Positions 925-22,278 of a stretch of DNA of 36,367 nucleotides are shown here, piece after piece. Position 1 is the first letter of the stretch. Each line of letters starts with the position of its first letter. Position numbers and translations under genes: made by a program. Under the pieces are notes generated by a model, which had not been told where the DNA came from, ran no database searches, and saw nothing but the letters and a program-made list of their open reading frames with translations. The DNA comes from Methanocella sp. (lineage in GTDB: Archaea; Thermoproteota; Bathyarchaeia; Bathyarchaeales; Bathycorpusculaceae): the NCBI GenBank assembly GCA_050261115.1, contig JBLNCY010000004.1, forward strand, positions 1 through 36,367, given 5' to 3'.

Positions 925-1152
925 ATGAAAACCCAACCAGAACCAAATCATATGGACATAGAAGAAACGGATATAGACTTTGACAAGCTATGTCGAGTAG
1001 GCAAAAAAGTTCAACTGTTCTTATTCAAGAAAATCGATAACCCTATTGGAATCTACTTACTTCTAAAAATACTCTGTTTTTCCTTTGAGGAAACCTGTGG
1101 ATATCGTTTGGACCCTAATGAAGAGCAAAAAATCAAACAAATGTTTAGCTAA
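925..1152 (+). CDS. small hypothetical protein of the integrated element
   Basis: 75-aa ORF with ggag SD upstream, co-oriented with the integrase. Confidence 0.55.
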   Translation: MKTQPEPNHMDIEETDIDFDKLCRVGKKVQLFLFKKIDNPIGIYLLLKILCFSFEETCGYRLDPNEEQKIKQMFS

Positions 1153-1178
1153 TCGCTAACTTTACGAGGTTTCTGGAG

Positions 1179-2348
1179 TTGACTACTCAAATTAAAATGA
1201 GTGGAGGTGAAAAGGCAAGTAGAGAATGTCCTAATTGTAAAAGCACAAAAAATTGGAAAGATGGTGTAAGGGAGACAGGTCTTGGTTCCATTCAAAGATT
1301 CATCTGTCGAGAATGTGGTTTTCGTTTCAGCACCAATCCTAAAGCCTTAAATCTAGACATTGTCACTAATGGATTTAGCCAATTATGCGCTGAACTAGGG
1401 GCGAAAAAATTGGATACTGCAACAGAAACTAAGACTGTTGCGGGAGAATCAACCGCTATCAAATCAAGCTCTGAAGCTACAATACTGGAATTTCTATGGT
1501 ACATGAAAAAACAAGGCTACAAAGAAACAACCATCATAAGCAGAGGCGTAAGACTTCGTAGACTTATGGCTCTTGGTGCTGACTTAAGCAACCCTGAAAG
1601 TATCAAAGAAACAATCGCAAAACAAGATAAATGGAAAGACTCAATGAAGGAAGTCGCAGTTTTTGCCTATGACCTATACGCGAAGTGGGCAGGACTAAAA
1701 TGGCAACGTCCAAGATACAAAGCTATAAGACAACTACCATTCATACCGCAAGAAAGAGAAATCGACGATGTTATCGCTGGATGCAACAAAGAAATCGCAT
1801 TGTTCCTACAAATCGGCAAAGATACAGGTGCAAGAGCTGGTGAAATCTTTAGGCTACAATGGACAGACATAGACTTTGAAGGCAGAACTATAAGTCTAAT
1901 TGCTGAAAAAGGAAGCAACCCACGAATCTTTAGACTAACAAATAAGCTCTTGAACATGCTAAGTGCAACATCGAAAGAGAACCAAAGAATATTCAACATC
2001 TACCTAAATCTAAACAACCTAAGAAGAACATTCGAAAGACAGAGAAATAGAACCGCCAAAAGATTATGCAATCCTCGCCTACATAAAATAACATTCCATA
2101 CACTAAGACATTGGAAAGGCTCAACTGAGTACCATAGAACCAAAGATATCCTCCATGTAATGCAAGTGCTAGGTCACAAGAACATCAAAAACACACTGTT
2201 ATACACGCAACTTATGAATGTAGAAAAAGACGATTCATTCATTTGCAAAGTTGCAAAGACACCACAAGAAGTCATTGAAGCTATTGAAGCTGGCTTTAAC
2301 TTTGTTTGTGAGATGGATGGTGCCAAATTCTTCAGAAAGGCAAAATAA
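1179..2348 (+). CDS. tyrosine recombinase/integrase with N-terminal Zn ribbon
   Basis: catalytic motifs TGARAGE (R), EKG (K), FHTLRH (HxxR), LGH, LLYTQ (Y); N-terminal CPNC...CREC. Confidence 0.92.
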   Translation: MTTQIKMSGGEKASRECPNCKSTKNWKDGVRETGLGSIQRFICRECGFRFSTNPKALNLDIVTNGFSQLCAELGAKKLDTATETKTVAGESTAIKSSSEATILEFLWYMKKQGYKETTIISRGVRLRRLMALGADLSNPESIKETIAKQDKWKDSMKEVAVFAYDLYAKWAGLKWQRPRYKAIRQLPFIPQEREIDDVIAGCNKEIALFLQIGKDTGARAGEIFRLQWTDIDFEGRTISLIAEKGSNPRIFRLTNKLLNMLSATSKENQRIFNIYLNLNNLRRTFERQRNRTAKRLCNPRLHKITFHTLRHWKGSTEYHRTKDILHVMQVLGHKNIKNTLLYTQLMNVEKDDSFICKVAKTPQEVIEAIEAGFNFVCEMDGAKFFRKAK

Positions 2349-2391
2349 CGGAATCACCCGCTTGTCGCAGGTTTATTCCAAGTTAATGTTA

Positions 2392-2468
2392 TGGTGCCGA
2401 GGGCAGGGTTTGAACATGCGACAACTCGGTCTTCAGCCGAGCGCTCTCCCAGGCTGAGCTACCTCGGC
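2392..2468 (-). tRNA. tRNA-Phe (GAA), CCA encoded, one T-stem mismatch
   Basis: reverse complement gccgaggtagctcagcctgggagagcgctcggctGAAgaccgagttgtcgcatgttcaaaccctgccctcggcacca folds as a cloverleaf. Confidence 0.93.
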
Positions 2469-2763
2469 ACAGTATACCTGGGTTTGCGCCTCATTTTTTT
2501 AGAGGCTATTTAGTCTGTGTCACGGCTGCTTATTTACGTTTTTGTATCTAAACAGTGAAGTATTTGACTAAACAACCGGTTGACTGGTTTCTAACAAGTT
2601 AGGTGGGTTATATGCCAAATATGGCGGCAGCGTTAACTAGTAATAGCCGGCTATTGCTCCAGCTAGGAAGCAGAGAAAAAGCCATAACCCGTCATAGTTA
2701 CTTTCTTGGAAGTCAAGTCTCAACATTTTAGTTTTACACCTACCCCATTTTTGACGTAAGATA

Positions 2764-2780
2764 GGGAAAGGCTTTATGAA
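2764..2780 (+). promoter_or_regulatory. BRE/TATA promoter of tRNA-Val
   Basis: purine-rich gggaaagg followed by tttatgaa about 30 nt upstream of the mature tRNA 5' end. Confidence 0.5.
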
Positions 2781-2809
2781 TGACTGCTATGTATTTTGAA
2801 TCCAAGCAT

Positions 2810-2886
2810 GGGCCGTTAGTCTAGCTGGCTAGGACGTCGCCCTCACGCGGCGAAGATCACCGGTTCAAATCCGGTACGGCCCACCA
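2810..2886 (+). tRNA. tRNA-Val (CAC), CCA encoded
   Basis: gggccgt/acggccc acceptor stem, tcgcc-ctCACgc-ggcga anticodon arm, accgg-ttcaaat-ccggt T arm. Confidence 0.96.
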
Positions 2887-2930
2887 ATCTTATAACCAAC
2901 TATTGCGTTGGTATGTATTAGGCGATTTTT

Positions 2931-3233
2931 ATGCATCACAAAAAACTGTTTGCTTTAGCGGGTGTTTTTTTAGCTGTTGCTCTGTTTACGCCTCCAATTG
3001 TTCTGTATCTTCAGGGGGTTACTGAGGAAGCGATTTTTCAGGAGCGTTTGGCGCATGAAACTGCGGGGAATTTTTCTTTTCTTGAGAAGATTCAGCAGAG
3101 TAGGCAGAATTCTTTGGTTTTGGTTACGGTAGTTGAGGTGGTTTTTGTTTCGCTTTTTGTGGTTGCTATGTATTATGGGATTAATCATCTTGCTATGACT
3201 GGCGGTAAAATTAGGCCCGGCATGGATGATTAG
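2931..3233 (+). CDS. small membrane protein (two hydrophobic segments)
   Basis: 100-aa ORF with N- and C-terminal hydrophobic stretches. Confidence 0.6.
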   Translation: MHHKKLFALAGVFLAVALFTPPIVLYLQGVTEEAIFQERLAHETAGNFSFLEKIQQSRQNSLVLVTVVEVVFVSLFVVAMYYGINHLAMTGGKIRPGMDD

Positions 3234-3345
3234 CGGCGGCTTGCTTGGTTTAATTAAGTATTGCAGGTGTAGTGTTACAGTCACATATTCTTTTTAAGCA
3301 ATTAGTTATTTGTGCTATTGGTAGCTTGCTATTGGGAGGTGTAGT

Positions 3346-3549
3346 TTGATGCCTGAATCATCCGTTAACATAACTGAGAAATTGGCCAAAATCGGTGAAA
3401 CTGCCCAGGAGTATAAAGACGCGATTGTTAGCCAGTTTAAGGATATGGAAGTTGAAGTGAAGGATTGGAATTTCTCGGTTGGGAAATCCGATAAGGAGTA
3501 TACTGTGGAGGTTAACCTCAAGCTGGGAATACGCTCAAAGAAGTCCTAA
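3346..3549 (+). CDS. small hypothetical protein
   Basis: strong ggaggtg SD directly upstream; protein-like composition. Confidence 0.65.
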   Translation: MMPESSVNITEKLAKIGETAQEYKDAIVSQFKDMEVEVKDWNFSVGKSDKEYTVEVNLKLGIRSKKS

Positions 3550-3627
3550 GCAGATTGTGGCACCAAAACAGATAAAAACTTGGCGTGCTATCCATCACAG
3601 CGGAACATTAATTGAGGAACAAACAAA

Positions 3628-3831
3628 ATGCCATCTGAGATCACCGATGTTGAGAAATTCGTGGCCATGAGCGCCAAAGCAAAACAGTGCCAAGTTAAAC
3701 GCTTAAAGGACGGCGTAAAATTGAAGCTTCGAATGCCAAGTCAACTCTATACCCTCAAAATCGAGGCTATACGAGCGGATGAAATCATAAAGAAGCTGCA
3801 ATGTGAAATTAAAGAGGAAGAGAAGGACTAA
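3628..3831 (+). CDS. rpl38e: 50S ribosomal protein L38e (eL38)
   Basis: MPSEITDVEKF...VKLKLRMPSQLYTLKI matches the eL38 pattern (MPxEI.D...F, K.K.R....LYTL). Confidence 0.8.
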   Translation: MPSEITDVEKFVAMSAKAKQCQVKRLKDGVKLKLRMPSQLYTLKIEAIRADEIIKKLQCEIKEEEKD

Positions 3832-3996
3832 CTTCCTTTACTTTGTATCTTTCTTGTTAAAATCTACATTCACGTTCTAGGGCCGTTTTGGGTTCTTTTG
3901 GTTTTGTGGGCTGGTTGTGCTCTCGCGGAGGAATCGCTCCCTTACGTATAGAGTCAACTTCGGGTTCAACTTGGGCTTGAAAAATCCATAGCTGGG

Positions 3997-15444: not shown

Positions 15445-16362
15445 TTGCATTCAAGGATGGCCAAGCATATTACAAACGAAAAATCAACAAACCAAACTGG
15501 TACAGTTACAGTAGGGTTAATCCAGACAGCCGTGTCTGATGATATATCAGCCAACATGGAAAAAACCTGTAAAAAAATCGCAGAAGCAGCCAAACAAGGT
15601 GCCCAGATCATCTGCCTGCAGGAACTCTACCGATCACGGTACTTCCCCCAGCAGCAAGGCGTAGATGTATCGGCGTTGGCGGAAACCATCCCCGGCGACT
15701 CCACACGCGCCTTCTCTTCATTAGCAAAGGAACTCGGCATCGTGATTATCGCCCCGATCTTCGAAAAAAACCACGACGGCAAAAATTATAACACCGCTGT
15801 TATTATCGATGCCGATGGCTCCATAGTGGGTACCTACCGCAAAGTCCACATACCCTTTGATCCCTACTTCTATGAAAAGGACTACTTCGCCCCCGGTCAG
15901 CAACCATACCAAGCCTACAATACCAAATACGCTCGCGTAGGCGTCTTGATCTGCTATGACCAATGGTTCCCTGAACCAGCCCGCATCAATGCCCTAGACG
16001 GCGCAGAAATAATCTTCTATCCAACCGCCATAGGCTACATTAAAGGCCACACCTCTGCAGACGGCGACTGGCATGACGCATGGCGAACCGTGCAGCGGGC
16101 CCACGCCATCGCAAACGGCGTTCACGTTGCAGCGGTAAATCGTGTCGGCGAAGAGGATTGGCTGGAGTTTTGGGGCGGCAGCTTCATCTGCGACTCATTC
16201 GGCAAAGTCCTAGCGGAAGGCAGCACTACTAAAGAGCAAGTTGTGGTTGCAAAAGTCGATTTATCACATAACCAACGCATAAAAGATGGCTGGGGTTTTC
16301 TACGCAACAGAAGACCCGACACCTACAACCCCCTCACAAAAGCCGTGGAGGACCAAAAATGA
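15445..16362 (+). CDS. aguB: carbon-nitrogen hydrolase, N-carbamoylputrescine amidase
   Basis: nitrilase triad CLQELY / YRKVHIP / ICYDQWFPE; FYPTAIG; overlaps aguA (ATGA); start may be ATG 15457. Confidence 0.85.
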   Translation: MHSRMAKHITNEKSTNQTGTVTVGLIQTAVSDDISANMEKTCKKIAEAAKQGAQIICLQELYRSRYFPQQQGVDVSALAETIPGDSTRAFSSLAKELGIVIIAPIFEKNHDGKNYNTAVIIDADGSIVGTYRKVHIPFDPYFYEKDYFAPGQQPYQAYNTKYARVGVLICYDQWFPEPARINALDGAEIIFYPTAIGYIKGHTSADGDWHDAWRTVQRAHAIANGVHVAAVNRVGEEDWLEFWGGSFICDSFGKVLAEGSTTKEQVVVAKVDLSHNQRIKDGWGFLRNRRPDTYNPLTKAVEDQK

Positions 16363-17402
16363 GTCGCCGCTGCCCCCGTGAAGAAGGCTACATTATGCCT
16401 GCAGAATGGCAACATCACAGCGCAATCTGGCTCGCCTGGCCATACGAGCAAACCACATTCCCAGATCGCGTTCACAATGTGGAAGTTACCTATGTTCAAA
16501 TAATCAAAGAAATCCATGAGAGCGAAGACGTTAACCTCTTTGTTATCGATGAACCTACAAAAAAGAAAGTCACATCGATGCTTCAACAGGCAGGCGTAAA
16601 CCTAACCAAAGTGCATCTATGGGTATCTGATTATGCTGATGTCTGGTTCCGAGACTACGGCCCAATCTTTGTCAAAAACCCCCAGCATAAGCTGGCGATG
16701 ATTCACTGGGACTTTAACAGTTGGGGCGAAAAGTACGAGACACTACTCAAAGACAAAGAAATTCCCGAGGTCATAAACAAAGAGCTCAAGTTAACCTGCT
16801 TCAAACCCGGCATCGTCTTGGAAGGTGGCTCCATAGATGTCAACGGCGAAGGCACCCTACTTACCACCGAGCAATGCCTGCTAAACAGCAACCGCAACCC
16901 CCACCTAAACAAGCAAGACATAGAACAATATCTCAAGGACTACCTTGGAGTACGACACTTTATTTGGCTTAAGCGCGGCATCTTAGGCGACGACACAGAC
17001 GGACACATAGACGACTTAGCCCGCTTCGTTAACCCAACAACCATCGTCTGTGCCTTCGAAGATAACCCCGCTGACCCTGACTATGCTGTCCTCAAGGAAA
17101 ACTATGACTTACTCCGTAAATCCACCGACCAAGAGGGTAAGCCACTTAAAATCATCAAGCTGCCCATGCCTAAAGTTGAAAGCGACGAAGGCTACAGGTT
17201 ACCAGCAAGCTACACAAACTTCTACATAGGCAACACCAAAGTGCTTGTGCCAGTTTTCGATCACCCCAACGATGCAAAGGCATTAGCGATACTGCAAGAG
17301 CTATTCCCCGATCGCAAAGTAGTGGGTATATGCTGTAAAGACCTCGTGTATGGCTTTGGCACGCTACACTGTATCAGTCAACAGCAACCAAGCGCAGACT
17401 AA
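16359..17402 (+). CDS. aguA: agmatine deiminase
   Basis: MPAEW, WFRDYGP, LEGGSIDVNG, DDTDGHIDD, ASYTNFY, GTLHCISQQ. Confidence 0.92.
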   Translation: MSRRCPREEGYIMPAEWQHHSAIWLAWPYEQTTFPDRVHNVEVTYVQIIKEIHESEDVNLFVIDEPTKKKVTSMLQQAGVNLTKVHLWVSDYADVWFRDYGPIFVKNPQHKLAMIHWDFNSWGEKYETLLKDKEIPEVINKELKLTCFKPGIVLEGGSIDVNGEGTLLTTEQCLLNSNRNPHLNKQDIEQYLKDYLGVRHFIWLKRGILGDDTDGHIDDLARFVNPTTIVCAFEDNPADPDYAVLKENYDLLRKSTDQEGKPLKIIKLPMPKVESDEGYRLPASYTNFYIGNTKVLVPVFDHPNDAKALAILQELFPDRKVVGICCKDLVYGFGTLHCISQQQPSAD

Positions 17403-17510
17403 ACGCATACCTGCTCAACACTTACCTGTTTCTTTTCTTTTTAGTTAAGTTTAAACTCTGCAGTGGAATAATAGGTAGAGCACCACAAAAAGGAGCAGAG
17501 GGATAGGGGT

Positions 17511-19727
17511 ATGGGAAATCAGCAACCGCATCGAAGCCGCGGCGTAAAAGTTCTCAAAGCCGTTTCGTCACCTCTGCGTCTACAAATCCTAAACCTTCTT
17601 TTCGACAAAAGCGCTTTGTCCTATACAGAATTGATGAACGAACTAAAAATGAATCCCAGCCGCGATGCAGGACGATTCGCTTATCACCTAAAATTTATGA
17701 TCAAAGCTGGGTTGGTTGAAGCAGATGTTGAAGCAAAAAAGTATTACTTAACCGACTTGGGCAAAATGGTCCTTGATGTAGCTGACCGGGTCGAGAAAAA
17801 AGCAGTTAAACCCTCCGGCATGATGGTGCGCACCTCGCGTTTGACATTGGAAGAGTTTGATGTTAACAAAATCGTAAATTCACTCATTAAAGAAGCGAAA
17901 GTTCCTGTTGAACTTGCACAGAAAGCCGCCAAAGAAGCCGAGAAACGCCTCATCAAATCCAAAACCAAGTACATCACGGCGCCCCTAATCCGCGAAATAG
18001 TTAACGGAATCCTAGTAGAGAAGGGTTATGAGGACTACCGTCACAAACTCACCCGAGTAGGCATGCCTATCAATGAAGTAACCGCACTCCTGGAATCCAA
18101 AGATGCACAGCTAAACTCTGGGGAAACCATCGATAAGGCAGGGCAAACTGTTCTCTCAGAATATGCTTTGTTGAATATTTTTCCACGTGACATCGCTGAT
18201 GCTCATCTCTCGGGCGCTATCCACATCGATAATTTAGGTACATGGGCGCTCAAACCCAACGAAGTAATCCATGAACTGCGCTACTTCTACCAGCACGGCG
18301 TCAAACTAAGCAACCCCCAACAGTTCTCCATTAAACCACCTACCAACTTCAAATCCGCACTAGCAGTTGCTTTTGACGTCATGCTGCTCACAAGCAGAGA
18401 AATTAATCAAACTCAGACCTTCAATTACTTCAACGTACACCTCGGGCCCTTTGTAGGTGGCTGCGATACCGCCGAATTAAAAGAGAACCTGCGCCTTTTT
18501 TTGCTCAACATTAACCGGCATGCAGATGCCACAATCGGCATAGAACTATACATGTCAAAATCATTCATGGAGAAAGAAGCGATTGGACCTCAAGGGGCGA
18601 TATATGGAAAATACGGCAATTTCTTCCATGAAAGCCAACTAGTCGCCTCATTGCTGGTTGAGATTTTTGCCGAAGAATGCGCATTAACGCCTCTACTTAA
18701 CCCAAAACTAGTCTTACGCGTCAACAACGACGCTTTAAATGATGAAAAAAGCCTCTCCATAATAGAGAAAGCTCACGAAGCTGCAGCCAAATCCGGCGCC
18801 ATATACTTCGCCAACTTAACCAGGAAAGAAAACGAGAACGCCTCTTTTTCCTCCACAGGCATAAAATTCACCCCTGACCTAACGGGGGAATGGGAAACTG
18901 ACACTCTACGAGTATGCAACTTAGGCCGCATAGCCATTAACATGCCACGAATAGCCCTAGAATGCGACAAAGACCCCAACAAATTCATTGAATTAGCCAA
19001 GGAACGCTTTGAATTCGCCGCACGCGCCTTAACAATAAAGAGCAATGCACTCAAACAGTTCGGCAAGGGCGCTATGCCCTTTTTAATGCAGAAAGGCAAC
19101 GGCGACAGTTACTTCCGAATTGAGAATTGCTCCAAACTCATTAATCTTGTTGGCATCCAAGAAGCAATCGAGACCCTCACTGAGACGCCTATAACCAGCG
19201 AGGAAAGCCGCAAGTTCCTCGGAGAACTCATCACAAACCTTTTTACTTTTAGGCAGAAACTGGGACGTAAGTATGGGAAACGCATTTACCCCGTACTCTT
19301 AGGTGACCGTGAAGCAGCAGAACGCCTTGCCTTACTTGACATCGAACGCTTCGGCGTGACCAAAACCAAGTTTTCGGGTACCCGCGACAAACCATACTAT
19401 TCCACAATACGACGCATACCTGTAAAGCGGGGTCAGCCGCTTGTGGCGCCACAGGGCACCTTGGAGATGGCGCGTCTAGTAGAAAGCTTAAATGCGGGAG
19501 GGAGCCTCGACGTCTATGAGCTAGACGACGGCGAATACCAACTCGACGCACTAATGTATTTCACTAAGAGGGTTTTTGATAATCAAGCCAGTGACCTCTT
19601 TACCTACAACCGGATTGTAAGCTTCTGTGGAAACTGCAAGAAAAGCGGAGTTGGAATAATTCATAAGTGCCCAAGCTGCGGTTCAATGAGCACTATTACC
19701 CGGTTTGATCGCTTTGTTTCTACTTAA
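17511..19727 (+). CDS. ArsR-type wHTH + ATP-cone + catalytically degenerate class III ribonucleotide reductase (NrdD-like) fusion
   Basis: wHTH (SSPLRLQILNLL...AYHLKFM..AGLV...YYLTDLG); ATP-cone (VRTS...EEFDVNKIVNSL...ITAPLIREIVN); NrdD body (ADAHLSGAIHI, GEWETDTLR, INMPRIA, PYYS, CGNC...CPSCG); catalytic Cys and Gly motifs absent. Confidence 0.85.
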   Translation: MGNQQPHRSRGVKVLKAVSSPLRLQILNLLFDKSALSYTELMNELKMNPSRDAGRFAYHLKFMIKAGLVEADVEAKKYYLTDLGKMVLDVADRVEKKAVKPSGMMVRTSRLTLEEFDVNKIVNSLIKEAKVPVELAQKAAKEAEKRLIKSKTKYITAPLIREIVNGILVEKGYEDYRHKLTRVGMPINEVTALLESKDAQLNSGETIDKAGQTVLSEYALLNIFPRDIADAHLSGAIHIDNLGTWALKPNEVIHELRYFYQHGVKLSNPQQFSIKPPTNFKSALAVAFDVMLLTSREINQTQTFNYFNVHLGPFVGGCDTAELKENLRLFLLNINRHADATIGIELYMSKSFMEKEAIGPQGAIYGKYGNFFHESQLVASLLVEIFAEECALTPLLNPKLVLRVNNDALNDEKSLSIIEKAHEAAAKSGAIYFANLTRKENENASFSSTGIKFTPDLTGEWETDTLRVCNLGRIAINMPRIALECDKDPNKFIELAKERFEFAARALTIKSNALKQFGKGAMPFLMQKGNGDSYFRIENCSKLINLVGIQEAIETLTETPITSEESRKFLGELITNLFTFRQKLGRKYGKRIYPVLLGDREAAERLALLDIERFGVTKTKFSGTRDKPYYSTIRRIPVKRGQPLVAPQGTLEMARLVESLNAGGSLDVYELDDGEYQLDALMYFTKRVFDNQASDLFTYNRIVSFCGNCKKSGVGIIHKCPSCGSMSTITRFDRFVST

Positions 19728-20672
<945 letters not shown>

Positions 20673-20718
20673 CTAATACTGCTAATTAACACTTGTGTGT
20701 CGAAGACTCGGTTGAGCG

Positions 20719-22278
20719 TTATTCGCCGACTATTAGAGATTTACCTGTCATTTCGCTAGGCTGCTTGATATGCATTAACTGCAGAATTGTTGGCGCCACA
20801 TCACCCAACCGTCCGCCCTCACGCAACTTTATGTCCTCATCAGTTACTACAATGAACGGTATGGGGTTGAGGGTATGAGCTGTCCAAGGGCCGCCAGTTT
20901 CTAAATCAAACAACTGCTCGGCATGCCCATGATCCGACATAACTACGCAAACTGCCCCAACCTCTTTTGCCGCTGCAACAACACGCGATAAGCATGCATC
21001 AACGTACTCAAGCGCCTTTATTGTTGCTTCAAGGTTTGCGGTATGCGAAACCATGTCTGGATTAGCATAATTAACCAGAATAAACGCGTATTTTTTTGAG
21101 TAGATTTGCTCGACTAGTTTATCCGTAACTTCACAAGCGCTCATCTCAGGCTTTAAATCATAGGTCGAGACTTTGGGTGAATTTACCAAAATCCGGTCTT
21201 CGCCGGGACTTGGGGTTTCTTCGCCTCCGTTAAAAAAGAATGTAACATGTGCATACTTTTCGGTTTCTGCGATGCGTAACTGCCGTAGCCCCAAGCGACT
21301 TATGACTTGGCCTAGTTTGTTTTCAAGTCGCAACGGCGGAAATACAGTTGGTAACTGGAATGTTTTATCATATTCGGTCATGCATACAACGTCGGTTTTG
21401 TGGAAAATTATGCGGTCAAATCCATCAAAATCGGGCTTGTAGAAACTCTGGACCAATTGCCTTGGGCGGTCAGACCTAAAATTGTAAAATATCACTAAGT
21501 CACCGTCCTCAAAGCCAAAATAATTCGTGTCTTCGTTTTTTATGACGGTTGGGCAAACAAATTCGTCGCCTTCATCGCGCTGATAAGCATGTTCCAAAGC
21601 ATTTTCCGCGGAAGTATCTTGGAGTCCTCTACCTAACGCTATTGCAAAGTACGCTTTAGCAGTACGATCCCATCGGCAATCTCTGTCCATAGCGTAGTAG
21701 CGGCCCATCACAGTTGCGATCCTGCCAACATTTAGCTGTCGGATTTTTTCCTGCAATGCCAGAATGTACTTTTTAGCGATTCTAGGTGGCGTATCTCTTC
21801 CATCCAGAATAGCATGGACCCATACCTTTTGGCAGTCTAATCGACGTGTAAACTCGAGCAATGCAAACAGGTGCCCTATGTCGCTATGTACGCCGCCGTC
21901 CGATAGTAACCCGATTAAGTGCACGTTTTTGTTGTTTTCTTTGGCTTTTTTTAGATGTGTTTGCAGGGTTTGATTTTTGAAAAAGTCGCCGTTTTTTATG
22001 GACGTGTTTATTCTTACTAGGTCTTGGGGAACTACGCGTCCTGCGCCTATGTTAAGGTGTCCAACTTCCGAGTTTCCCATTATGCCTTCGGGGAGACCCA
22101 CGTCGCCGTTAGATGCACTAAGTGTAGTGTGTGGATACTGGTTCTGCAGTTTGGTCATAGTTGGCAGGTTTGCTTGTGCAATGGCGTTGCCAGGTGTTTT
22201 GGGTGCTATCCCCCAGCCGTCGAGGATAACTAGTATGAGCGGTTTGATATTTTGGGCCTCAGGACGAGATGTTACCAA
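20719..22278 (-). CDS. gpmI: 2,3-bisphosphoglycerate-independent phosphoglycerate mutase (bacterial-type iPGM)
   Basis: ILDGWG, MGNSEVGHLNIGAG, GLLSDGGVHS, GRYYAMDRD, AETEKYAHVTFF, SDHG. Confidence 0.95.
   Translation of the reverse strand: MVTSRPEAQNIKPLILVILDGWGIAPKTPGNAIAQANLPTMTKLQNQYPHTTLSASNGDVGLPEGIMGNSEVGHLNIGAGRVVPQDLVRINTSIKNGDFFKNQTLQTHLKKAKENNKNVHLIGLLSDGGVHSDIGHLFALLEFTRRLDCQKVWVHAILDGRDTPPRIAKKYILALQEKIRQLNVGRIATVMGRYYAMDRDCRWDRTAKAYFAIALGRGLQDTSAENALEHAYQRDEGDEFVCPTVIKNEDTNYFGFEDGDLVIFYNFRSDRPRQLVQSFYKPDFDGFDRIIFHKTDVVCMTEYDKTFQLPTVFPPLRLENKLGQVISRLGLRQLRIAETEKYAHVTFFFNGGEETPSPGEDRILVNSPKVSTYDLKPEMSACEVTDKLVEQIYSKKYAFILVNYANPDMVSHTANLEATIKALEYVDACLSRVVAAAKEVGAVCVVMSDHGHAEQLFDLETGGPWTAHTLNPIPFIVVTDEDIKLREGGRLGDVAPTILQLMHIKQPSEMTGKSLIVGE

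Follow-up and report, generated by a model that had tools for sequence, protein, structure and literature searches.

Bacterial NrdR is a transcription regulator in which the ATP/dATP load of an ATP-cone controls DNA binding (PMC9110341 and PMC12176259, available portions of both texts). It is described as rare in archaea in the available part of PMC12176259, and as having no archaeal orthologues in that of a preprint (bioRxiv 10.1101/2025.03.28.645925). ATP-cones also regulate anaerobic, class III ribonucleotide reductases (RNRs): in NrdD from Prevotella copri, the cone drives an order-disorder switch (PMC11226230, in its accessible sections). GlyXL, a relative of the anaerobic RNR that has lost the glycyl-radical residues, is functional and needed for glycine synthesis, and is reported as an enzyme working with an ACT-domain partner (PMC13759103, accessible part). 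Here we describe an open reading frame (ORF) at positions 17511-19727 of contig JBLNCY010000004.1 from a Bathyarchaeia genome (GCA_050261115.1); the whole stretch that was analysed, 36,367 nucleotides (nt), is called the window. The ORF joins an ArsR-type winged helix to an ATP-cone and to an NrdD-like body. We propose that its product is probably a sensor of adenine (deoxy)nucleotides that regulates transcription, acts on nucleotide-metabolism genes and is built on a catalytically dead class III RNR.

A full-text literature search, in which supplementary tables were not covered, returned nothing that deals with a fusion of winged helix, ATP-cone and NrdD, with DUF7347 or with an archaeal regulator resembling NrdD, and the available part of the RNR phylogeny paper PMC9531940 holds no relevant mention of such proteins. 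The family is apparently unstudied; curators of the RNR database may already have flagged such sequences as non-RNR.

Domain architecture of the protein

The ORF starts with ATG and runs through 738 amino acids (aa) to its stop codon with no internal stop. The initial annotation, made by eye, had described an intact frame, an N-terminal ArsR-like winged helix, an ATP-cone and a full NrdD-like body with a retained zinc site. Profile searches recovered all of these. The parts are as follows.

17511-19727, forward strand: complete ORF of 738 aa and a stop codon; winged helix, ATP-cone and predicted catalytically dead NrdD body
17550-17774, forward strand: ArsR-type winged helix-turn-helix (HTH), aa 14-88 (PF01022 and PF24038 above their cut-offs)
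17820-18041, forward strand: ATP-cone, aa 104-177 (PF03477, 34.6 bits against a cut-off of 25.8)
18036-18068, forward strand: conserved cone-to-body linker YRHKLTRVGMP, aa 176-186 (65-row family alignment)
18126-19712, forward strand: NrdD-like alpha/beta-barrel body, aa 206-734 (PF13597)
19626-19679, forward strand: Cys4 zinc site C706-x2-C709 ... C720-x2-C723 (shared by all 65 family rows and all 120 near homologues)

The winged helix matches two Pfam models above their cut-offs, HTH_5 (PF01022) at aa 20-70 with 31.4 bits (cut-off 22) and the DUF7347 winged helix (PF24038) at aa 14-88 with 31.1 bits (cut-off 27.6). The recognition helix is RDAGRFAYHLK, and G54, F56, Y58, H59 and L60 are invariant or at least 90% kept in the 65 family rows. 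When the family profile was compared with solved structures, the HlyU/ArsR chains 5znx and 3jth were matched at an E-value of 3e-4. Because aa 1-200 contain no Cys, an ArsR-type thiolate metal site is not present, and the metalloregulator model NF033788 scores 33.3 bits, below its NCBIfam cut-off of 55. There is also a weak NCBIfam match to the Sso10a chromatin-protein family (E 0.0015).

In the linker, Y176, R177, T181, R182, G184 and P186 are invariant or at least 90% kept in the 65 rows. The body gives 196 bits (E 1.5e-57) with NRDD (PF13597), which is the only Pfam match in the body region. The NrdD equivalog TIGR02487 gives 214 bits, below its cut-off of 326.35, the other NrdD equivalogs of NCBIfam are far below theirs, and the NrdR equivalog TIGR00244 is absent among the matches of the protein at E <= 1. 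Along the whole body, the family profile matches the solved NrdD chains 9d3x (6e-44), P. copri 8p23 (2e-43), Thermotoga maritima 4coi (4e-36) and phage T4 1h78 (3.5e-35). The ESM Atlas contains a model of this exact sequence with a predicted template-modelling score (pTM) of 0.73, and its aa 95-738 superpose on a real-NrdD cluster with a template-modelling score of 0.81. A complex prediction with two copies of aa 1-195 and ATP scored 0.13 against a mark of 0.42, which speaks neither for nor against dimerisation.

Loss of the catalytic, substrate-binding and specificity motifs

The motifs of the body were compared with those of phage T4 NrdD, of the active-type NrdD encoded in the same genome (P0121) and of five further real NrdDs. 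Residues were counted in the 87 full-length winged-helix representatives of the family and in 120 near homologues, which are 734-747 aa long, 65-88% identical to the protein and carry the same four Pfam domains. The positions concerned are listed below.

18222-18233, forward strand: remnant of the HxHD motif, H238-I-D240-N241 (by alignment)
18261-18263, forward strand: E251 at the position of the first-strand catalytic Cys (aligns with T4 C79 and with C174 of the same genome's NrdD)
18843-18869, forward strand: finger-loop remnant SFSSTGIKF, aa 445-453, without the thiyl-radical Cys (by alignment)
19680-19727, forward strand: short C-terminal tail GSMSTITRFDRFVST with the stop codon, replacing the glycyl-radical loop (S737 aligns with the radical Gly)

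The replacement of the Cys of the RPNC motif by E251, claimed in the initial annotation, is seen in the alignments with both T4 NrdD and the genome's own NrdD. The column is E in 119 of the 120 near homologues, and Cys occurs there in none of the 87 family representatives. For the thiyl-radical Cys, the MAFFT alignment places T449 in the column, as had been claimed, and the BLAST and HMMER alignments are one to two residues off. Whichever alignment is used, aa 441-468 contain no Cys. The nearby C469 is poorly kept, being G in 117 of the 120 near homologues, and only two of the 87 family rows have a Cys in the finger-loop column.

The glycyl-radical motif is gone, again as claimed. The stop codon comes directly after T738, 15 residues beyond the last zinc Cys. 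The tail ...CPSCGSMSTLTTFDRFTST-stop has the same end point in 120 of 120 homologues at 65-88% identity, the near-homologue ending being ...CPSCGSMSTLTTFDRF(T/A)ST; therefore, the truncated tail is not a sequencing error. The radical-Gly column holds Gly in 13 of the 87 representatives. Distant members carry a longer, often glycine-less remnant of the radical domain (YGRxxxxYLPLxxW), which is cut off in the clade of the window. An R[IV]TGY tail was found in 0 of 102 winged-helix representatives versus 18 of 48 without a winged helix. The possibility that the radical residues persist at shifted positions was also checked: no Cys lies in aa 441-468, and the two radical Cys and the radical Gly occur all together in 0 of the 87 representatives.

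Motifs outside the radical chemistry are affected as well. In the available text on P. copri NrdD, the HxHD motif is described as a triphosphate clamp and the NxN flap as being among the best-conserved motifs of NrdD; loop 2 is described as a relay that links the specificity and active sites (PMC11226230). The H, H and D of HxHD are kept in six, six and five of the six real NrdDs, respectively; in the 87 family rows, the column of the second His is most commonly S (20), P (15), N (9) or E (8). The columns of the NxN flap and of the loop-2 RGGQ, both kept in six of six real NrdDs, are gaps in the 738-aa protein according to MAFFT. In the HMMER alignment, the RGGQ faces unrelated residues. The change of GGQ to QTQ was likewise found. 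The TPAES motif is lost as stated, and only its replacement had been misread: GDREA is one register off, and TPAE faces LGDR in MAFFT (PAE is kept in six of six real NrdDs and lost in the family). The body keeps the NrdD core motifs NLPR, GxxEA, YYS and GG. As judged from these alignments, the residue classes needed for radical chemistry are all lost, and so are those needed to bind substrates and specificity effectors in the canonical way.

The ATP-cone carries a modified putative nucleotide-binding site

The cone was aligned with the NrdD and NrdR cones of the same genome and with two NrdJ cones. The K-R pair of an ATP-cone binds nucleotide phosphates. The cone of this protein begins V106-R107-T108-S109-R110-L111, versus the canonical V-K/R-K-R-D-G, so that T-S replaces K-R. 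All 120 near homologues have R107, T108 and S109. K120, I121, K127 and R177 agree with canonical cones, and nowhere in the family alignment are invariant columns denser than in the cone. The initial annotation had supposed that the protein uses the allosteric sites of RNR. At most the ATP-cone, with its K-R pair replaced, fits that idea; the loop-2, NxN-flap and HxHD motifs are lost.

The family is conserved as a pseudoenzyme

A search of 1.8 billion cluster representatives gave 1491 clusters at E <= 1e-3 and 300 at E <= 1e-30. Among the best 150 representatives, 102 have a winged helix and a cone, and 98 have all three parts. Thus, the search for the HTH, ATP-cone and NrdD architecture revealed a large archaeal family, across whose members the catalytic losses are kept. 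The 65-row alignment contains 20 invariant columns, which are distributed over the winged helix (3), cone (8), linker (3), zinc site (4) and the rest of the body (2). Conservation is strongest in the winged helix, the cone and the linker.

Selection was estimated from 29 pairs; because the synonymous rate (dS) is saturated or undefined in most of them, the ratios of nonsynonymous to synonymous rates (dN/dS) are rough. Where dS is defined, dN/dS is 0.02-0.055 in the winged helix, 0.02-0.10 in the cone and 0.07-0.13 in the body. In same-genus pairs, dN is about 0.30 in the body versus 0.04-0.08 in the N-terminal domains, which is about four times faster. Trees were built on the body alone. In FastTree, 88 of 88 winged-helix rows fall into one clade with SH-like support of 99, beside real NrdDs of the MGCR type. 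A quick IQ-TREE group summary gave three changes of the winged-helix label and is compatible with a single clade. Two rows without a detected winged helix, P0181 and P0250, are nested in it: P0181 is an N-terminally cut gene call, and a full-length member of its cluster has the winged helix; in P0250 (627 aa) no winged helix was found.

Neutral decay of the gene was looked for: the frame ends alike in all 120 near homologues, and dN/dS lies between 0.02 and 0.13 where dS is defined. The length is kept, the family forms one clade and dN is far below dS where measurable; on this comparative evidence, the protein is a maintained pseudoenzyme and not a decaying gene, as had been proposed. A decaying nrdD pseudogene, or an artefact of assembly or sequencing, might have been suspected from the score below the NrdD equivalog cut-off and from the absent C-terminal radical domain. 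We regard this as having practically no chance of being correct given the intact frame, the common end point in 120 of 120 homologues, the occurrence in 277 of 401 genomes (see below) and the excess of dS over dN.

The same data bear on a different possibility, that the protein is bifunctional or an enzyme whose barrel has acquired new, non-radical chemistry in the manner of GlyXL, the winged helix and cone only tuning or autoregulating it. Purifying selection on the body (dN/dS about 0.07-0.13 where defined) and the retained NrdD core motifs would be expected from such an enzyme. However, the body changes about four times faster than the N-terminal domains, the alignment shows no conserved polar cluster replacing the lost active-site residues, the body has no Pfam match besides NRDD, and there is no adjacent gene for an ACT-domain partner. 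Moreover, some lineages have shortened the body to about 570-630 aa or lost the zinc ribbon and have kept the winged helix and the cone. We therefore consider a new enzyme unlikely.

Clusters of 493-631 aa in the Atlas keep the HTH, and the NrdD domain is not among the Pfam families shown for them; in one of these clusters, 64% of the members have the cone. A stand-alone form consisting of winged helix and cone was also looked for among 235 shorter matches, which have scattered lengths of 129-400 aa. Nine of the ten that carry names at NCBI are labelled 'partial', so they look like fragments rather than a two-domain form.

Some NrdD-like representatives without a winged helix have lost all or some of the radical residues (P0204, P0210 and P0251; P0232, P0234, P0247 and P0263), and three representatives of this kind keep the first-strand Cys. 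P0214 (725 aa) is NrdD-like, has two ATP-cone stretches and no winged helix, and branches beside the winged-helix clade. Several kinds of dead NrdD may thus exist.

Distribution of the family

The N-terminal 200 aa (winged helix and cone) were used as the query against 401 genomes from 161 genera of the phylum at E <= 1e-8. Matches were found in 277 of the 401 genomes and in 111 of the 161 genera; several families had none (0 of 23, 0 of 12 and 0 of 15 genomes). The 80 closest genomic loci are all titled Bathyarchaeia, Bathyarchaeota or close synonyms. The named members of distant clusters belong to Nitrososphaerales, Jordarchaeia/Freyarchaeota and Ranarchaeia, and the Atlas adds clusters of the same architecture labelled Promethearchaeota and Nanobdellota.

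The activase NrdG2 is above its cut-off in 170 of the 401 genomes. All 56 genomes of the genome family f15 carry the gene, and the best NrdG2 E-values there are only 1e-10 to 1e-16; by their scores, these matches are generic radical-SAM similarity. Many of the host genomes and lineages lack the NrdG activase, and the presence of the family is independent of class III chemistry. Because an f15 protein is 40% identical over 694 aa to a cluster labelled Nitrososphaerales, we take f15 to be relatives of ammonia oxidisers.

In public databases, the members are named 'anaerobic ribonucleoside-triphosphate reductase', 'ArsR family transcriptional regulator' or 'hypothetical'. The expectation that automated pipelines would call the gene nrdD was correct for the first of these names. 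The labels of the first kind overstate the occurrence of class III RNR in archaea, and in lineages taken as aerobic ammonia oxidisers they wrongly suggest anaerobic dNTP synthesis.

Genomic neighbourhoods in the family

Wider context was collected from 52 loci, one per genome, which were hand-chosen to span families rather than drawn at random. In 16 of the 52, the family gene has an RNR catalytic gene no more than 1 kb away; 15 of these RNR genes follow it in the same orientation, at distances of 148-566 bp. In the remaining locus (L124), the RNR gene is divergent after a local inversion of the family gene. Twelve of the 16 adjacent RNRs are of the class I/II type, of which Pfam confirms three; NrdJ was confirmed in L113 and L143 (TIGR02504, 728 and 736 bits against a cut-off of 400). 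The other four are NrdDs with HIHD..C and RxxGY, three of them with the CC finger motif, and the two tested, from L116 and L145, gave 514 and 520 bits with TIGR02487. The 16 loci span five genome families, with NrdJ in f15 and f7 and NrdD in f4, f5 and f9. Thus, the link to deoxynucleotide synthesis proposed from the window is backed by gene context elsewhere, in loci that adjoin RNR genes of class II or III.

A small glutaredoxin-like ORF with CxxC lies between the family gene and nrdD in L116 (10552-10857); in L151, between 6056 and 6298, there is only a stop-interrupted remnant of it.

The gene next to the ORF in the window is of another kind.

19728-20657, reverse strand: pyrB, aspartate carbamoyltransferase catalytic chain, convergent with the ORF (TIGR00670, 389 bits against a cut-off of 237)

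The stop codons of the ORF and pyrB abut without a spacer (19725-19730), and their transcripts therefore probably overlap. A convergent pyrB was found in 74 of 80 close loci, and in five of the other six the contig stops at the family gene. Of the set of 52, 14 loci belonging to eight further families show this convergent pair, with pyrB no more than 1 kb away. The order family gene, nrdD, convergent pyrB in L145 and L151 suggests that the arrangement of the window arose when nrdD left. No nrdG is adjacent to the ORF, as had been noted; the nrdG of the same genome lies on another contig beside nrdD. The gene pyrI is apart from pyrB, also on another contig of this genome (C3:74766-75044, L165).

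A third neighbourhood consists of thiolase-DUF35(-HMGCS) genes directly upstream on the same strand, in 14 of the 52 loci and in one Asgard-type contig. The loci are L113-L119, L124, L126, L131, L160-L164 and L166 (1826-4857), and the order is on the same strand except in one locus with the family gene inverted. The DUF35-type neighbour is an OB/zinc-ribbon gene; the order is deep and conserved and has no obvious link to nucleotides. The Asgard-type locus L166, the sole usable one, has no RNR gene or pyrB within its 9-kb contig. In family f28 (L128:6955-9833, L129 and L159), the protein is only about 590-600 aa long and lies beside ornithine carbamoyltransferase (TIGR00658, about 405 bits), which is divergent with a gap of 138-178 bp in two of the three loci. 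In f28, another carbamoyltransferase takes the place of pyrB.

Adjacency to RNR genes would fit a physical partner of the RNR or nucleotide machinery equally well as a regulator. In such a protein, the winged helix would touch other proteins or bind chromatin unspecifically, and the body would act as a mimic of an RNR partner or titrate it; the weak match to Sso10a and the fact that no operator was found are in line with this. However, the adjacent RNRs belong to two classes with differing quaternary structures, so that one dead NrdD-like body is unlikely to pair with both. In addition, the recognition helix is nearly invariant across phyla, as would be expected for a specific DNA target, and the ArsR-type models are above their Pfam cut-offs. 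On balance, we hold a partner acting at the protein level to be improbable.

The variety of neighbours could also mean that the protein is a regulator whose signal and targets are unrelated to dNTP pools, with another ligand in the cone and the neighbours being inherited gene order. The replaced K-R pair, the existence of three recurrent neighbourhoods, one with mevalonate-pathway genes, and the short f28 forms (about 600 aa) beside ornithine carbamoyltransferase speak for this. Against it, RNR genes of different classes are adjacent in separate lineages and the adjacency survives the inversion in L124; pyrB is also a nucleotide-synthesis gene, and the cone residues K120, I121, K127 and R177 are canonical. 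We give this explanation little credence compared with a regulator of nucleotide-metabolism genes.

Directly upstream of the ORF on the same strand (15445-17402) are genes for a carbon-nitrogen hydrolase and agmatine deiminase, probably an agmatine-to-putrescine route; they are neighbours in only 13-14 of the 80 close loci. The only Rfam/ARAGORN matches in the window are tRNA-Phe(GAA) at 2392-2468 (reverse strand) and tRNA-Val(CAC) at 2810-2886 (forward strand).

The RNR system and NrdR of the same genome

The genome (2.15 Mb, 94.9% complete) has one other NRDD match, a 709-aa NrdD on another contig (P0121), which has all catalytic motifs and gives 562 and 1063 bits in the NrdD equivalog test. 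Thus, a separate active-type RNR, for which the genome was searched, is present, in the following operon.

698-1147, 1144-3273 and 3284-3961 of locus L001, on another contig of the same genome: nrdR, nrdD and nrdG

A true NrdR lies directly upstream of nrdD (TIGR00244, 156.7 bits against a cut-off of 124.65), and the only NrdG of the genome directly follows it (TIGR02495, 184 bits against a cut-off of 131). Domains of class I or class II RNR were not found in this genome. About 40 nt upstream of nrdR (contig C19, L001 at about 655-670) there is a sequence ACACTATACATATAAC, which we presume to resemble the NrdR-box consensus.

Of the 401 sampled genomes, 25 have NrdR. All 25 belong to the same family as the window (24 of 25, and this genome); outside it, NrdR occurs in 0 of 375. 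The nrdR-nrdD-nrdG operon looks like a lineage-specific acquisition of a bacterial-type module. In the phylum, the winged-helix family is widespread and NrdR is a local addition; both coexist in this genome. The initial annotation had called the protein an archaeal analog of NrdR. A regulator tied to nucleotide supply is right in kind, but the genome already has a true NrdR.

Upstream regions and transcripts

A promoter-like element precedes the ORF.

17441-17459, forward strand: promoter-like element TTAGTTAAGTTTAAACTCT, containing the palindrome AGTTTAAACT, about 50-70 nt upstream of the start codon

The TTAGTTAAGTTTAAACTCT-type element is conserved upstream of orthologues in the same genus and family and is likely a BRE/TATA element. 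The upstream regions of pyrB from 72 loci have a common promoter-like block, ACAAAGTGTTATTTAGCAG, which is unlike that of the ORF. In many Bathyarchaeia loci (L004-L024), pyrB is preceded, at a distance of about 60-110 nt, by a block GCAGTCG..AACAACAAAAGCATATAAGCACTAAC of about 40 nt; the window lacks this block and has the end of iPGM there.

In nine f15 loci, GATC is 3.3-fold enriched upstream of the family gene and nrdJ (14.7 versus 4.5 per kb), in a count that partly overlaps the end of the upstream coding region and comes from genomes that are kin. A block GGTGTCAAYAWWWTTGA occurs about 100 nt upstream of nrdJ in f15 (L113-L164), and nrdD in L116 and L150 is preceded by similar words. GATC and GGTGTCAAYAWWWTTGA are candidate sites and are not significant as tested. 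An expectation-maximisation search of ten RNR-upstream regions gave the motif TACAAAATTTTATACAAC with a log-likelihood of 47, versus 42-44 for shuffled sequences; this is possibly a TATA box.

Contigs at least 99% identical to the window from four metatranscriptome studies cover parts of the gene. Six RNA runs contain 23-46% of the sampled words of the stretch, and in four RNA runs the contigs leave 17262-17523 and 20668-20798 uncovered. These contigs give no strand, ends or level, and RNA libraries can contain DNA; they are compatible with expression and are not proof of it. DNA runs of several studies contain 99-100% of the sampled words, which also counts against an assembly artefact, although the source sample is possibly among them.

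Proposed function

We propose the following model for the protein as a regulator of nucleotide-metabolism genes. A winged helix would have been fused to a duplicated class III RNR, and catalysis would have been lost later. The dead NrdD body may keep the protein dimeric and so present two winged helices to DNA. The cone, placed between the winged helix and the body, would bind ATP/dATP or a related nucleotide through its modified site, and the nucleotide load would alter the presentation of the winged helices or the oligomeric state, turning DNA binding on or off. This switch is modelled on the control of bacterial NrdR and of cone-bearing NrdD activity by ATP/dATP. The most likely targets would be the RNR genes where these are adjacent. 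Because NrdR is already placed on nrdD-nrdG in the genome of the window, the targets in this clade may be pyrB, other nucleotide genes or the protein's own promoter; alternatively, it may act alongside NrdR. DNA binding, nucleotide binding and oligomer switching are all deduced here from sequence.

Several observations weigh against this proposal. The canonical K-R pair of the cone is replaced by T108-S109, so that the ligand may not be ATP/dATP. In the clade of the window, the expected placement beside RNR genes fails: the neighbour is pyrB, and 0 of the 80 close loci have an RNR, NrdG or NrdR gene within 6 kb. An operon or a divergent pair would be stronger evidence than a convergent pyrB. 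With the true NrdR upstream of nrdD-nrdG, the protein does not take the place of an absent NrdR in this genome. Some of the adjacency may be frozen synteny since the thiolase-DUF35-HMGCS neighbourhood is unrelated to nucleotides. Furthermore, the related genomes are not independent samples, and the 52 loci were picked by us. An operator was not found either. When the 108-nt upstream region was compared with the whole genome by blastn-short, only chance-level matches of 11-17 nt were obtained. Shared palindromes upstream of nucleotide-metabolism genes, which had been suggested as a check, were sought, and no motif is common to the upstream regions of the ORF, nrdR and pyrB. The motif searches in RNR-adjacent loci gave weak results, possibly core promoters.

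As a wider and more tentative idea, which we think somewhat doubtful, the family might be the main archaeal sensor and regulator of DNA precursors, corresponding to bacterial NrdR, in TACK, Asgard and DPANN archaea. It would have arisen once and would have outlived the enzyme, as the persistence of the gene beside class II RNR genes in lineages without a class III activase (f15) would indicate. Where nrdR-nrdDG was acquired later, as in the lineage of the window, it would have been kept for other nucleotide genes such as pyrB.

Transcriptional control of RNR in archaea is largely unexplained, and the family, which is large and old, makes this question directly testable. If the proposal is true, a whole enzyme has been turned into the scaffold of a regulator, and an ATP-cone can also be coupled to a DNA-binding fold unrelated to that of NrdR.

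Comparison with known systems

GlyXL resembles the protein, according to the accessible part of its description, in that it is also an NrdD relative without catalytic residues. No DNA-binding domain or ATP-cone is mentioned for GlyXL there (PMC13759103), whereas the present protein has both. Membership in the GlyXL group was considered and rejected in view of the strong PF13597 match and the absence of any DUF711 match in the genome; DUF711 is the Pfam family that we assume to represent GlyXL.

With the non-metal-sensing, HlyU-type members of the ArsR/SmtB family, the protein shares a winged helix that matches PF01022 and solved HlyU chains. It differs from ArsR/SmtB regulators in that aa 1-200 are free of Cys and NF033788 is below its cut-off; the predicted sensor is the ATP-cone together with the dead enzyme.

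Class III NrdD (P. copri, PDB 8p23) is homologous from the cone to the zinc site, with the same order of cone, linker, barrel and zinc ribbon. However, the equivalents of Cys171, Cys416 and Gly711, as well as HxHD, the NxN flap, loop 2 and the glycyl-radical loop, are gone from the protein, which has an extra winged helix at its N-terminus and is found in genomes without NrdG.

The likeness to NrdR is one of arrangement. In both proteins a DNA-binding domain is N-terminal to an ATP-cone, RNR genes are neighbours in several lineages and, by analogy, the nucleotide load of the cone would set DNA binding. NrdR, however, has a zinc ribbon in the place where this protein has an ArsR-type winged helix without Cys. 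Furthermore, the present protein carries a dead RNR body of about 530 aa after the cone, has no TIGR00244 match and has the K-R pair of its cone replaced.

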